Below are positions 16,225 to 47,431 of a DNA stretch of 64,000 nucleotides, one piece after another. A program made the position numbers and the translations under genes. The DNA lies in NCBI GenBank assembly GCA_963747235.1, contig CAVVEU010000027.1, positions 29,689-93,688 of the forward strand, in the 5' to 3' direction. The notes under the pieces were generated by a model. That model saw only the letters and a program-made list of their open reading frames with translations, made no database searches and was not told the origin of the DNA. The first letter of the stretch is position 1. Every line of letters starts with the position of its first letter. The stretch is from an uncultured Candidatus Rokubacteria bacterium (GTDB lineage Bacteria; Methylomirabilota; Methylomirabilia; Rokubacteriales; CSP1-6).

Positions 16225-18461
16225 TCAACGCGTCGCCACCACCCGGATCAGCGCGCCGTCGGATCGGGGCGGCGTGACCTCGCCGATGATCGCGGCGGCC
16301 CCGTCGCCGGCCGCCCGCACCGCGCTCAGCATCGCCGGGCCGCGCTCCCGGGGCACCGCGAGCAGCAGGCCGCCCGAGGTCTGGGGATCGAAGAGCAGGT
16401 CGAGCGCTGCCCGTCGCGCCGCGTCCGGCTCCACGAGCATCGCGCGCCGCGCGCGGGCGTTCTCGGGGTGCGCGGTGCTCCGGATGCCGCGGCCGAGCAG
16501 CGCCACCGCGCCGGGCAGGGCAGGGATCGTGGCGAGGTCGAGCACCGCCGAGGCCTTGCTCGCCGCGCAGCATCTCGCCCAGGTGCCCGGCCAGGCCGAA
16601 GCCGGTGACGTCGGTGGCGGCGGAGGGCCGCAGCGCGAGCATCGCGCGCGCGGCCGCGCCATTGGAGCGGAGCATCGAGGCGGCGGCCGCCTCCACCCAC
16701 TCGCCGCGCGCGAGGGCGCGCATGTCGGCCTGCAGGATGACGCCGGTGCCGAGTGGCTTGGTCAGGATGAGCTGGTCGCCGGGCGCGGCGCCGCCGATGC
16801 GGATCAGCGCATCGGCCGAGGCCGCGAAGCCCCAGACCGCGAAGCCCACCACCAGCTCGGGCCCCGTGGTGGTGTGGCCGCCCACGAGCGTGACGCCGTC
16901 GGCCTCGAGCGCGGCGCGGGCGCCCGCCATCACCTGGTAGAGCGTCTCCTCCGCGCGCGCCGGCTCGGCCTCGGGCACGCTCACCTGGGCCAGGGCGAAG
17001 CGCGGCGTCACGCCCTTGGCCCAGAGATCGCTGACCGCGTTGACCGCGGCGACGCGCCCGACCAGGTAGGGATCGTCGGCGAAGGCGCGGAAGGAGTCCA
17101 CCGTGGCCGCGACGATCTCGCCGCGCTCGGTCTCCACCGCCGCGGCGTCGTCGGGCTGGGCCAGGCCCAGGACGACGGCGGGATGGCTCGGGACGCCGAG
17201 GCGCTCGAGCGCGCGGGTCAGCGAGGATTCGCCCACCTTGGCCGCGCAGCCGCCGCAGAGCATGTCCCCGCCGGGCATCGGGCCGCCGCGAAGTCCGGCG
17301 TGACGGCGCCGTCCTGATCCAGCACCTGGAAGCGGCGCACGAAGCGGCGATCGATCCAGTCCTTGAGCGCGAATACCGCGCGGCCTTCGACCGAGGCGCC
17401 CCACTTGGTGCCGATCGCCCCGCCGTCCCCCAGGTTCAGCAGGGAGAGGAAGTCGACGCTGCGGGCGATACGCGCGGAGGCGCTCGCCGCGGATGCGCGC
17501 GATCAGGTTGTGCGCGAGCACCGGGCCCTGGCGGACCGCGTACACGCCGGCCTTGGCGAGGCCGGGGCCCGTCGGTCCACGCCGCGCAGTCGCCCACCGC
17601 GAAGACGTCGTCGTGCCCCACGCACTGCAGCGTCGGGCGGATCCGGACGAAGCCGCCCTCGTCGGTCTCGAGCCCGGAGCCGTCGAAGAGCGGCAGCGCG
17701 GCGGCGCCCGCCACCCAGACCACCGCGTCGGCGGGCAGCCGCTCGCCGCCTTCCAGGTGCACCGCGCCGGCCTCGACGCGCGTCACGCGCGTGCCCGTGC
17801 GGATCGCGATCCCGCGCGCCGCGGCCGCGGCCTGGACGCGGGCCGCCGCGCTCGCCGCGTAGCCCGGCAGCACGCGGGGGCCGGACTCGAGCAGGAGCAC
17901 CTCGACGCGCCCGGCGCGCTCACCGCGGAGCCGCGCCGCGAGCGCGAAGGCCACCTCGACGCCGCCCGCGCCCGCGCCGACCACGACGAGGCGCGCGGCG
18001 TCTCGGCCCCGCGCCGCGGCCAGCAGCTCGTCCACCCGGCGGACGAACTCGCCGATGGGGCGCGTGGGGATCGCGTGCTCGGCGACGCCGCGCAGCCCGA
18101 GCCCCGCCACCGTGGAGCCCACGTCGAAGGACACGGTGTCGTAGGCGATCGGCGGCCGGGCTTCCAGGACGAGGCGCCGTGCGGTGGTGTCGAGCCCGGT
18201 GGCCGGGGCGACGATGCAGCGGGCGCCCGCGCGCAGCGCCAGCGGCCGCACGTCGATCTCGAGGGCTTCCCGCGGGTACTGGCCGGCCACGAAGCCGGGC
18301 ACCATGCCGGAGTAGACCGCGACCGGCCGATCCACCACGAGGGTGAGGCGCGCCCCGGGGACGGGCGCCATGGCCCAGCGCTTGAGCACCTGGATGTGGG
18401 CGTGGCCGCCGCCCACGAGGACCAGGTCGTGCCGGATGGGAGCCGCGGACGGCGAGCGCAT
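16225..18461 (-). CDS. selD: FAD-dependent oxidoreductase - selenophosphate synthetase fusion (several frameshifts)
   Basis: N-terminal LVLVGGGHAH and GAGAGG; C-terminal CGGCAAKVG, DDAA, GGHT, LTKPLGTG, DVTGFGLAGHL, DPQTSGGLL. Confidence 0.9.
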
Positions 18462-18481
18462 GCCCGTCCGCGGTGGAGCCG

Positions 18482-20792
18482 TCAGTGCTTGCCGTTGACC
18501 AGGGACAGCGCGATGCGCTCCGGGCTCATCGGCAGCTCGGTCAGGCGCACCCCGGTCGCGTTCTGGATGGCGTTGGCGATCGCGGCGGGCGCCGGGATGA
18601 TGGGCGGCTCGCCGACGCCGCGGGCGCCGAAGGGACCGGCGGGCGCGGGCACCTCGACGATGATGGTCTCGAGATTGGGCAGGTCCGCCGCGGTCAGCTT
18701 GCGGTAGTCGAGCAGGCTCGGATTCGTGAGCCGCCCGACGTCGTCGAAGAGCAGCCCTTCCGTCAGCGCCATGCCGATGGACTGCACGGCCCCGCCCTGC
18801 ATCTGGCCCGCGACGCCCATCGGGTTGATCGCCTTGCCCACGTCCTGCACGACCACGAAGTCCAGCAGCGTCACCTCGCCGGTGTCCGGATCGAGCTCGA
18901 GCCGCGCGAGCTGGGCCGCGAAGCCGGGGGCCTGCTGGGTGAACGCCGGGTTGGCCTTGCCGAGCACCGGCGGCGTCTTCGACATGTAGAGGTTGCCCTT
19001 CTTGCCGATGGAGGCCAGCGTGATGCCCTTGCTCGGCGCGCCGCGCACCGTGACCTTGCCGTCCACCAGCTCGAGGTCGTGCACCGAGGCCTCGAGCTCC
19101 GCCGCCGCGATCTCGAACGTCTGCCGCCGCGCGTCTTCCGCCGCCTGCAGCACCGCGGCGCCGACCGTGTAGATGGTCTTGCTGCCCGCGCTCAGCCCGG
19201 TCATCGGGCGCCACGTCGGTGTCGCCGGTGGTGATGCGCACCAGGTCGGTGTCCACGCCGTAGGCGGACGCCGCGATCTGGGCCAGCGAGATGTTGGTGC
19301 CCGCGATGTCCACCTGGCCGGTGAGCACCGCGAGCGTGCCATCGGGATTCAGTCGGACCGTCGCGCCGGTGGGCTGGAGCCCGCCGAGCCAGCCGCCGAG
19401 GGCCAGGCCCACGCCGCGGCGCTTGCCGTTCTTGCTCCCGGTGATCCACTGCTTGCGGCTCTTCCAGTGCGGGTGCTCGGCGATGCGGGCGAGCACCTGC
19501 TTGGCCCCGTTGTTCTGCCAGGGCTGGCCGTTCACCATCGGATCGCCTTCCTGGATCAGGTGGCGCATCCGGAACTCGACCGAATCGAGATCGAGATCGC
19601 GGGCGATCTGCTCCATCTGCGACTCGATCGCGAAGATGGTCTGCGGCGCCACCGGCGCGCGGTAGGCGGCCACGCTCGGCTTGTGGGTCAGCACCTCGAA
19701 GCCGCGGATGTCGAACGACGGCCACTTGTACATGCTGCCGAGGAAGACCGCGCTCACCGCGAGCACCGCGCCGGAGTACGCGCCGGAGTCGATGACGGTC
19801 TCCGCGTCGAGGGCCATGAGGGTGCCGTCGCGCTTGACGCCGGTCTTGAGCTTGATGATGACCTGCGGGGCGGGCATGCCCGCCTGCAGCTCTTCCCGCC
19901 GCGTCATGACGTAGCGCACCGGGCGCTTGGTGACCTGCGCCAGCACCGCGGTGATCGGCTCGCAGAGCGCGCGGATCTTGCCGCCGAAGCCGCCGCCGCA
20001 CTCCACCGGGATGACCCGGATCGAGTTCTCGGGGATGCCGAGCACGTCGGCCACCTCGGAGCGCGTGTTGAACGAGCCCTGGGTGCTGGCCCAGAGCGTG
20101 AGCAGCCCGTTGCGGTCCCACTCGGCCAGGACCGCGTGCGGCTCGAGGTAGCCCTGGTGCACCATCGGCACGCGGTAGGTCTTCTCGAGGATGTGATCCG
20201 ACTCCGCGAAGCCCTTGGCCGGGTCGCCGCGCTGCAGCCGGGCCTGCTGCGAGATGTTCACCGCCTTCGCGGGCGTGTCGCTCTTGGCGATGGCCACCGC
20301 GGAGTGGGCGAGCGCCTCGCTGGTGTCGGCCTCGGTGCCCGCGTCGGCCACCGGCGGCGCGCCGGGCAGCATGGCCTTGAGCGGATCGATCGAGGCGGCC
20401 AGCACCTGGTACTCGACCTTGATGAGGTCGAGCGCTTCCTCGGCGATGGACGGCTCGTCCGCGGCCACCGCGGCCACCGGCTGGCCCATGAACACCACGC
20501 GGTCGATGGCGAGCACGGCGTGGGCGCGCGTCGGCGCCTTCTTCTTGAGATGCGGGATGTCCTTGGCGGTGATGACCGCGCGCACGCCGGGCAGCGCCTT
20601 GGCCGCGCTGGTGTCGATCGAGACGATCTTGGCGTGGGCGTGCGGGCTGCGCAGCAGCTTGGCGTGCAGCAGGCCCTTGGCCTGGATGTCGGCCACGTAC
20701 TGCACGCGGCCGGTGACCTTCTCGGGGCCGTCCGGCCGCGGAATCGAGATGCCGACTCCCTTGACGTCGCGCGTGGTCTTCATCGTGCTCAT
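18482..20792 (-). CDS. Xanthine dehydrogenase-family molybdopterin-binding subunit (frameshift near 19205)
   Basis: LRSPHAHA, GGGFGGK, AYRAP, GQMQGG, GARGVGEPP. Confidence 0.92.
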
Positions 20793-21280
20793 CGAGCGCT
20801 CCTCTGCGAGGCGAGGGTGCCCGCCGCCTCGCTGATCGCGGCCACCATCGCGGTGTAGCCGGTGCAGCGGCACAGGTTGCCGGCGATGCCGTAGCGGATC
20901 TCCTCCTCGGAGGGCCGCGGGTTCTCCTCGAGCAGCGCGGTCGCCGCCATCAGCACGCCCGGGATGCAGAAGCCGCACTGGGGCACGCCGTGCCGGACGA
21001 ACGCTTCCTGCAGCGGGTGCAGGGTGGTGTCCGCGGCCGCGAGGCCCTCGATGGTGCGGACCTTGCGGCCGCGCACCTGCATCGCCAGCATCAGGCAGCT
21101 CGCCACCACCTTGCCGTCCACGTGGACGGTGCAGGCGCCGCAGTCGCCGGTGCCGCAGCCTTCCTTGGGGCCGGTGAGCCCCAGGTTCTCGCGCAGGGCA
21201 TCGAGCAGGTTGACGTAGGGCTGGACGAGCACCTCGACGGCCTCGCCGTTCACGGTGCAGCTCAGGAGCTGTTTGGCCAC
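20789..21280 (-). CDS. Molybdenum hydroxylase 2Fe-2S subunit
   Basis: GCGTGDCGACT, QCGFC, GNLCRCTGY. Confidence 0.94.
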   Translation of the reverse strand: MAKQLLSCTVNGEAVEVLVQPYVNLLDALRENLGLTGPKEGCGTGDCGACTVHVDGKVVASCLMLAMQVRGRKVRTIEGLAAADTTLHPLQEAFVRHGVPQCGFCIPGVLMAATALLEENPRPSEEEIRYGIAGNLCRCTGYTAMVAAISEAAGTLASQRSAR

Positions 21281-46139: not shown

Positions 46140-46217
46140 GTCCGAATCCTCATCGCGCGGTTTTCGCGCGCCAGTGTAAGCCTCGTTCGAGCGCCGCGCC
46201 GGCGCACCCGTCCGAGG

Positions 46218-46246
46218 TCGGAGGGGGCCGTCAAGGCCCCCTCCGA
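46218..46246. repeat. 12-bp perfect hairpin TCGGAGGGGGCC-GTCAA-GGCCCCCTCCGA
   Basis: Direct inspection; lies between convergent genes. Confidence 0.7.
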
Positions 46247-46249
46247 GAA

Positions 46250-46787
46250 CAAGGCCGCGGATGACGTCGCGCGCGGCGGCGCTCTTCCAGTCGCGGCCGC
46301 CGACGATCCGGCCGACCAGGCGCCCCTCGCGGTCCACCAGGTAGGCGGTGGGCGGCCCGAAGACGCCGTACACCCGCCCCGTGAGGTCGCCCGAGGCGTC
46401 GAGGAGCACCGGCGCGGTGTAGCCGCGCTCGGCGACGGTCCGCTTCACGACGTCGCTACTCTCGCGAAAGCTGATCAACAAGACCTCGAGCCCCTGCCCC
46501 TTGAATTCCTCGTACAGCCGATTGACGGAAGGTAACTCCTCCCGGCAGGTCGTTCACCAGGTGGCCCAGAAGAAGAGCAGCAGCGCCTTGCCCTTCTGGT
46601 CTTCGAGCCGCACCGTGCGGCCGTCGAGCGCGGGCAGGGCGAAGGCGGGCGCCGGCCTGGGCGACTCGTAGGCCTGCACGCCCATCTTCTCCCAGGCCGG
46701 CGGCGCGGCGGCGGGTTGCGCCGCCGCGGCCCCGGCCCAGAGCGCCGCCGCGATCAGGATGGACGCGGCGAGCGGGCGTCTACTCAC
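46250..46787 (-). CDS. Exported TlpA/ResA-like disulfide reductase, putative selenoprotein (UxxC); 3' end unresolved
   Basis: APAFALPALDG..LFFWATW-TGA(46556-46554)-TTCREELPSV.., continuing in frame to PTAYLVDREG; SECIS-like stem. Confidence 0.88.
46527..46543 (-). promoter_or_regulatory. Candidate bacterial SECIS element
   Basis: GGGAGG-AGTTA-CCTTCC hairpin; 16 nt lie between the UGA and the loop, with G at loop position 2. Confidence 0.6.
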
Positions 46788-47344
46788 GCGCCCGAGTCCT
46801 TGAGCGCCTTCAGCACTTCCGCGGGATCCAGCAGGTCGAGCGCGTTGTCCTGGATCTTCATGTACCGGACCACGCCGTTCTTGTCGATCACGTAGTAGGC
46901 GCGCTTGGCGTAGCGGAAGATCGGGCTCTTGTCGTCGGTGACCAGCGCGTCGTACCCGGGCAGCATCGCGCGGCGGAAGTCGGACAGGAGGGGGTAGCTG
47001 ATCTTGTTCTGCTTGGTGAAGGCGTCCAGCGTGGCTGCGTGGTCGGCGCTCACTCCGATGACCTGGGCGCCGGCGGCCGTGAACTGGGGTAGGGTCTCCT
47101 CGAAACCGAGGAGCTCCTTGGTTCAGGTACTGGTGAATGCCTGGATGAAGGTGAAGACGACGACGGGGCCCTTGGCGGTCAGGTCGGACAGCTTCACGGG
47201 CTTGCCGCCGGGGCCGGGCAGGGTGAAATCGGGCGCTTTCTGGCCGACTTCCAGGGCCGTGGCGGGTCCGGCCGAGCCGAGACCGGCGGCGACCAGGCCG
47301 GCCAGCAGCAGGGCCGCGACCAGGAGCGGGGTCATTCGACGCAT
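46784..47344 (-). CDS. Exported peroxiredoxin (AhpE/BCP-like), putative selenoprotein (TxxU)
   Basis: VGQKAPDFTL..AFTST-TGA(47125-47123)-TKEL.., continuing in frame to GVSAD, LLSDF, KRAYYVIDKNG; SECIS-like stem. Confidence 0.9.
47096..47113 (-). promoter_or_regulatory. Candidate bacterial SECIS element
   Basis: CTCCTCG-GTTT-CGAGGAG hairpin; 16 nt lie between the UGA and a loop that starts with G. Confidence 0.7.
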
Positions 47345-47431
47345 GGCGTTCTCCTTTCCAGGGTGAGAGGTGACGCCCACACAACGGGCGGTGGGCTCCC
47401 GAAGTTTCCGGGCCACGCGCATAATGCTCGC

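Follow-up and report, generated by a model that had tools for sequence, protein, structure and literature searches.

Paired genes for a predicted exported selenocysteine peroxiredoxin and a TlpA-like selenoprotein in Rokubacteria: a candidate selenium form of an envelope peroxide-reduction pathway

INTRODUCTION

In the envelope of Caulobacter crescentus, ScsB reduces TlpA, and TlpA in turn reduces PprX, an exported peroxiredoxin of the PrxQ type, according to the pathway described by Cho et al. (2012, PMC3322552). Selenocysteine (Sec, U) has a place in related proteins: lists of bacterial selenoprotein families (PMC9312934, PMC13188914) contain an entry 'Peroxiredoxin (TxxU)', for which PrxU of Eubacterium acidaminophilum is cited as the first characterised member, and an entry 'Prx-like thiol:disulfide oxidoreductase (PF00578, UxxC/UxxU)', credited there to Kryukov and Gladyshev. 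Here we describe two overlapping genes, one for a peroxiredoxin-like protein (Prx) and one for a TlpA/ResA-like thioredoxin-fold protein (TlpA), each with an in-frame TGA at its catalytic codon. They lie in a stretch of 64,000 nucleotides, hereafter the window, from an uncultured Candidatus Rokubacteria bacterium of the phylum Methylomirabilota (assembly GCA_963747235.1, contig CAVVEU010000027.1, positions 29,689 to 93,688).

A 2026 review (PMC13188914) names, in its section on selenoprotein operons, grdA-grdB, prdB-prdC, frh/hdr, Prx with a SelW-like gene, a Prx-like gene with an AhpD-like gene, SAO and Tso; the pair of Sec-Prx and Sec-TlpA is not named in that section. The same review takes from Deng et al. 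a metagenome-assembled genome of Methylomirabilota with 63 predicted selenoprotein genes. Among bacteria, the largest selenoproteomes known seem to be those of this phylum. A first-pass annotation, made from the sequence of the window, had read the two genes as a translationally coupled and exported selenoprotein pair. Our analysis leads us to a similar view: by slightly better than even chances, as far as the genes can tell, the two genes would form an operon for a selenium-based couple that is exported and reduces peroxides in defence of the envelope.

RESULTS

Both genes have a TGA at the catalytic codon

All window features given here lie on the minus strand. The Prx gene (46784-47344) reads from an ATG at 47344, with a Shine-Dalgarno-like AAGGAG (47351-47356) 6 nt ahead of it, through 186 amino acids to the stop codon TGA at 46786-46784, and it contains one internal TGA only. 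The protein is of BCP/PrxQ-like type, with Pfam scores of 109.9 bits for AhpC/TSA (PF00578) and 83.3 bits for Redoxin (PF08534), and its closest solved structures are the archaeal BCP/PrxQ proteins 2ywn, 2cx3 and 3hjp (E 6e-26 to 1e-22). The internal TGA, codon 74 (47123-47125; FTSTUTKE), stands at the peroxidatic position of the TxxC motif and aligns with the peroxidatic Cys of all three. As the 186-residue translation has no Cys at all, the protein is classed as a 1-Sec type.

The TlpA gene (46231-46787) is taken from its GTG to the TGA that serves as stop in the nearest relatives. Its TGA, codon 78 (46554-46556; WATWUTTC), is the first position of a UxxC motif and aligns with the first Cys of CxxC in solved homologues, the nearest of which are a Geobacter thioredoxin-family protein (3kcm), ResA (4nmu) and TlpA (1jfu). 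Cys81 (46545-46547), at the resolving position, is invariant in 36/36 aligned orthologues, as are the UxxC motif as a whole and the cis-Pro loop. Pfam matches are AhpC/TSA (PF00578, 91.3 bits), Redoxin (PF08534, 72.3 bits) and Thioredoxin_8 (PF13905, 38.5 bits); with the first of these and U78-T-T-C81 the protein fits the definition of the Prx-like thiol:disulfide oxidoreductase family. Both TGAs are thus where the first-pass annotation had put them, at the catalytic residues.

The earlier reading called for a translated search of related genomes for the operon and its TGAs, and such a survey supports it. Among the best 80 of 342 stretches of public contigs that encode a Prx relative, codon 74 is TGA in every one (80/80), and 63 of the 80 are followed directly downstream by a TlpA gene in which codon 78 is TGA and codon 81 encodes Cys. 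In all 35 loci picked for alignment, the one TGA is the sole interruption of each mature domain. Of 61 sampled relatives, 59 have a Prx orthologue, as do 146 of 251 genomes across the phylum, tallies that take in three unpublished genomes (G029, G135 and G243), as no other count in this work does; nearly every orthologue match listed has exactly one TGA. By their record titles the loci belong to Candidatus Rokubacteria/Rokuibacteriota and Methylomirabilota, with a few bins labelled otherwise.

The host genome (5.57 Mb in 42 contigs, 88% complete) encodes the machinery for Sec insertion, on whose presence the first-pass reading depended. The genes for tRNA-Sec (69.3 bits), selA (578.1 bits) and selB (365.2 bits) lie side by side on contig 14. 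The gene selD for selenophosphate synthetase, announced for 16.2-18.5 kb of the window, was found there at 16345-17257 as a Cys-type gene in two pieces, one matching TIGR00476 with 227.8 bits and a second in a different frame.

Could both TGAs be sequencing errors, or the genes pseudogenes? The assembly offers some ground for this suspicion, since its frames are broken in selD, in a molybdo-hydroxylase gene, in a DsbD-like gene and at the 3' end of TlpA. However, TGAs at the catalytic codons recur in dozens of assemblies from different studies, the frames around them are intact in all 35 aligned loci, and the full Sec machinery is present in the genome. Chance is excluded because both TGAs are kept in dozens of independent assemblies, which bears out the earlier argument that two independent errors at both catalytic codons are improbable. 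We therefore give error or decay hardly any credence; judged from these comparisons, both genes are genuine selenoprotein genes.

Several other places in the genome bear on selD and on selenoproteins. In the stretches 16345-17545 and 17436-20978, selD shows an apparent run-in from an upstream stretch resembling a pyridine-nucleotide-disulfide oxidoreductase (a putative name, given by eye), and a large open reading frame resembling a molybdo-hydroxylase changes frame near 19.3 kb. The frame breaks around 16345-20978 seem to be either assembly indel errors or broken genes. A second selD-like stretch, in three pieces in different frames, is located at contig 8:303114-303868. Other Prx- or TlpA-like frames, each with one or two TGAs in frame, were seen at C6:23186-23665, C13:173874-174218, C14:101519-101920, C17:11928-12248 and C24:52583-53095, and the host genome, like its relatives, seems to be rich in thioredoxin-fold selenoproteins.

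Standard annotation breaks the genes up

The first-pass annotation had also expected standard gene calling to fragment both genes, and public databases agree with it. Among the best 120 database proteins, 107 are C-terminal fragments of 102-113 amino acids, named 'redoxin domain-containing protein' or 'peroxiredoxin'. In 12 longer proteins that were aligned, the Sec position is occupied by W in six, where TGA had been read as Trp, by C in two, and by another residue or a gap in four.

SECIS-like hairpins downstream of the TGAs

Evidence for a selenocysteine insertion sequence (SECIS) is good for TlpA and mixed for Prx. The TlpA hairpin (46518-46553) has a seven-pair top stem (46544-46538 with 46532-46526) and the loop AGUUA. 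Over 53 aligned rows, 88.8% of its cells are paired versus at most 58.2% in slid controls. Three of the seven top pairs never vary and one breaks in 4 of the 53 rows, while a fourth pair is kept in all 53 via one compensatory change; the 16/28 pair is seen as G-U, A-U and G-C. The stem codons of the window include TTA (Leu) and CCT (Pro), which are expected to be rare in a genome this GC-rich.

Downstream of the Prx TGA there is a hairpin at 47096-47113 with a 7-bp stem (CUCCUCG/CGAGGAG) and the loop GUUU, and the TGA with the 47 nt after it folds at -18.4 kcal/mol (z -2.44). This hairpin is perfect in the window and in its 8 closest relatives, but family-wide 56.1% of its cells pair, equal to the controls. 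A second hairpin further downstream is better kept in the family (76.2% paired, with C-G/G-C covariation) and is absent from the subgroup of the window. RNAalifold gave no meaningful consensus for the region downstream of the Prx TGA (-0.26 kcal/mol, 4 pairs).

The two genes as a unit

The stop codon of Prx overlaps the start of TlpA in the tetranucleotide GTGA (46784-46787), where the GTG start of TlpA (46787-46785) is laid on the TGA stop of Prx. In 49 loci the Prx stop is always TGA (49/49), and in 48 of them it overlaps the TlpA start by 4 nt or 1 nt (39 RTGA, 9 TGATG), with an AAGGA(G) box ahead of the TlpA start formed by the last Prx codons. Translational coupling, as the first-pass annotation had it, is supported, and the arrangement of the genes speaks strongly for a coupling of expression that several families of the phylum have retained.

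One may nevertheless suppose that both are exported selenoproteins which are not partners, each reduced by DsbD/CcdA or by some other protein, while the operon only secures their co-expression. TlpA is not downstream in 17 of the 80 Prx loci (two of these at contig ends), and Cho et al. (PMC3322552) report that PprX expressed in E. coli needs no TlpA to be reduced, as DsbD could do so through its thioredoxin-like gamma domain. Both points fit this alternative. The nearly constant overlap in several families argues against it, as does the Prx itself, which has no resolving residue of its own and so needs an external reductant. We consider independent functioning of the two proteins improbable, and favour a joint function of the pair.

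About eight of the 17 loci (L096, L098, L100, L104, L106, L109, L111 and L117) form a group of Prx paralogues of ∼60–66% identity, which have downstream not TlpA but a small lipoprotein-like gene. In its product of ∼130 amino acids there is a lipobox-like ...AAC, and ...YRVSVWDYTW is conserved towards the end.

The neighbours of the pair are an MpaB/Lcp-type oxygenase, an FMN reductase and a GNAT gene, all unrelated to it. A scan of the locus for promoters and terminators found no promoter and no T-tailed terminator. A contig from a rhizosphere RNA library (X15, record 14) spans 46524-47353, taking in Prx together with the initial third of TlpA, at ∼94% identity with 50 mismatches and no gaps. 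We take it as a weak hint of expression, given that such libraries may contain DNA and that a contig is not a single transcript.

Both proteins have export-type N-termini

The alignment of Prx to cytosolic BCPs begins at residue 31, and the first 30 residues (47255-47344), which have no counterpart there, look like a signal peptide: MRR, a hydrophobic core and a predicted cleavage site ATA-LEV. In 20 of 20 close loci position -1 before LEV/LDV is A and position -3 is A or V. Residues 1-23 of TlpA (46719-46787; ...LWAGAAAA-QP) would likewise form a signal peptide or membrane anchor, and the N-termini of 48 loci follow the same pattern of basic, then hydrophobic, then small residues. The N-termini are thus of the export type assumed earlier, with basic residues, a hydrophobic run and a small-x-small site (ATA/LEV and AAA/QP, respectively), from which we infer that both proteins are probably exported. 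Tat comes into consideration for Prx by its conserved N-terminal RR; we favour the Sec export pathway, however, because the Prx signal has a strongly hydrophobic core and RR is missing from most TlpA orthologues.

The 3' end of the TlpA gene

The first-pass annotation let the TlpA gene end near 46250, and here it has to be corrected. The conserved protein does end near residue 180 (46248), but the window has no in-frame stop there. In the two nearest relatives TlpA ends five codons past ...RGLV/RDLV, at a TGA inside the loop of a GC-rich hairpin. In its last codons the window has one base fewer than these two, which puts the corresponding TGA (46233-46231) outside the reading frame. The TlpA frame stays open to 45423, its extension lying in antisense to the gene of the FMN reductase. 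We think an assembly indel the likelier cause, since the same assembly has frame breaks in the selD, molybdo-hydroxylase and DsbD-like genes. A related DNA contig (X1, record 2; 46182-46880) has no indel at 46218-46250, and possibly comes from the window's own sample. The hairpin itself (46218-46246; 12 bp, -41.6 kcal/mol, z -3.82) is common to the two closest relatives only, and having no T-tail it is not a canonical intrinsic terminator.

Active site of the peroxiredoxin and its probable substrate

In 36 of 36 aligned Prx orthologues Thr41, Sec44 and Arg118 (mature numbering) are invariant, and of the active-site set Pro/Thr/Cys(Sec)/Arg, as given in the legend of Fig. 4 of PMC3322552, three of the four residues are matched. 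The fourth is the Pro of the signature PxxxTxxC, which is replaced by an Ile invariant in the same 36, with a one-residue gap relative to BCPs. Since this signature residue is lost, the Prx may not be a typical peroxidase. The protein also stays below every curated NCBIfam cut-off (BCP 55.3 versus 140 bits; PrxQ 46.8 versus 260 bits), and the PrxU model gives 29.5 bits against a cut-off of 270, so no curated peroxiredoxin model is reached.

These features feed another reading, in which the two exported proteins form a selenol/thiol reductase couple acting on something other than peroxide, its Prx-like member being without peroxidase activity like PrxL of Caulobacter. Such a couple might repair envelope proteins after oxidation, take part in copper or cytochrome-oxidase assembly (compare TlpA of Bradyrhizobium), or deal with another oxidant. 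A Prx-like substrate of ScsB without detectable peroxidase activity is in fact described by Cho et al. (PMC3322552), though PrxL is assigned there to a different subfamily, cd02969. In the relative G245 (C79:21000-24500) a Cys-type Prx homologue in which the catalytic Thr has been lost (...AANKTC...) is overlapped by a TlpA that keeps its TGA, and for this reason TlpA may have other clients. On the other side stand the invariant Thr, peroxidatic position and Arg, and the fact that the best solved matches are true BCP peroxidases. A non-peroxide substrate appears unlikely to us, and the peroxidase activity of Prx, read from its sequence, is the assumption we keep.

Candidate electron donors in the genome

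The first-pass annotation suggested a search for a DsbD/CcdA electron donor. The neighbourhood of the pair contains no DsbD or CcdA gene, whereas two candidates were found elsewhere in the genome. On contig 13 (181311-184949) a protein with DsbD_N and DsbD_TM domains (73.4 and 52.8 bits) has a Thioredoxin_7 domain in another frame; contig 8 (291822-295469) encodes a CcdA (60.3 bits).

The DsbD-like gene of contig 13 is flanked by an MsrB-like open reading frame (putative, by eye) and by one of Prx-like1 type (WTNHDCPYV; by eye, no Pfam match), a neighbourhood that resembles the one described for ScsB in Caulobacter. Directly upstream of the CcdA gene on contig 8 lies a ResA/TlpA paralogue of Cys type (WATWCDPC) that shares 38% identity with the Sec-TlpA. 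One TGA had been counted in it, but this is its stop codon, and the site itself is WCDPC.

DISCUSSION

We propose a mechanism for the pair because it has the two soluble parts of the Caulobacter pathway and because candidate donors are encoded in the genome. Outside the cytoplasm, Sec74, the sole redox residue of Prx, would reduce organic peroxides or hydrogen peroxide, ending up as a selenenic acid. The TlpA/ResA-like reductase (U78-x-x-C81), made from the same mRNA by coupled translation, would then attack the oxidised Prx and restore it, keeping an internal Se-S bond, and would itself be recharged by a membrane transporter encoded elsewhere, either a DsbD/ScsB-like protein or CcdA. The electron steps from transporter to TlpA and from TlpA to Prx are modelled on Caulobacter and should be taken as putative.

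Several observations weigh against this scheme. The Prx hairpin shows no family-wide pairing above controls, the conserved TlpA stop is missing in the assembly of the window, the signature Pro is gone, TlpA is absent from some Prx loci and in one relative is coupled to a Prx homologue without Thr, and the genes next to the pair are unrelated, with no DsbD or CcdA among them. To these we add that TlpA too is below the curated cut-offs (ResA 99.3 versus 170 bits; TlpA 72.7 versus 230 bits). We rate the peroxide-reduction couple as slightly more likely than not.

A more specific version concerns selenium itself. Since Prx lacks a resolving residue, its recycling would begin with a bond between two selenium atoms. 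This could amount to an obligate Se-to-Se relay, in which the Sec of TlpA attacks the oxidised Sec of Prx, a transient interprotein diselenide is formed and Cys81 resolves it. We put this forward tentatively and think it rather less probable than not. If true, it would be a natural Sec-to-Sec electron relay between exported proteins, nearly fixed across a widespread soil phylum, and would link the defence of the envelope against peroxides in soils with the supply of selenium.

Rokubacteria are uncultured bacteria that abound in soils, and a conserved Sec/Sec couple suggests that they defend the envelope against oxidative stress in a selenium-dependent manner. Since public annotation regularly cuts both genes short or mistranslates them, functional profiling of metagenomes does not pick up the module. 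It may also serve as a compact natural system for asking what is gained from Sec in both partners, peroxidase and reductant, and how the export of selenoproteins works.

Our literature search, with supplements and some recent papers outside its reach, found no description of an exported Sec-Prx/Sec-TlpA operon. Still, the suggestion of the first-pass annotation that the system is undescribed goes too far, as both families are catalogued (PMC9312934, PMC13188914) and a Cys-based precedent exists in ScsB-TlpA-PprX (PMC3322552). With that pathway the locus shares, on the evidence of its genes, a PrxQ/BCP-like peroxiredoxin and a TlpA-type reductant, both with predicted export signals, and a DsbD-family transporter in the genome. 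It differs in having Sec at both active sites, a Prx without resolving residue and without the motif Pro, and two genes that overlap in one operon.

Comparison with the single families gives a similar picture. Like the TxxU peroxiredoxins, Prx has an AhpC/TSA domain with Sec at the peroxidatic position; it departs from them in its export-type N-terminus and in the missing Pro of PxxxTxxU. TlpA, with PF00578 and UxxC, resembles the Prx-like thiol:disulfide oxidoreductases, while its fixed pairing with a Sec-Prx and its export signal go beyond what the family entries in these sources describe. It also has the thioredoxin fold, WxxC-type site, cis-Pro loop and N-terminal anchor or signal of ResA/CcdA systems and of the TlpA of cytochrome/CuA maturation, but differs from ResA and TlpA in its scores below the curated cut-offs and in that the genome has a separate Cys-type ResA-like gene beside CcdA. 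Taken together, and by analogy, the pair is probably the selenium form of a known envelope pathway of peroxide removal, put together from two catalogued selenoprotein families.

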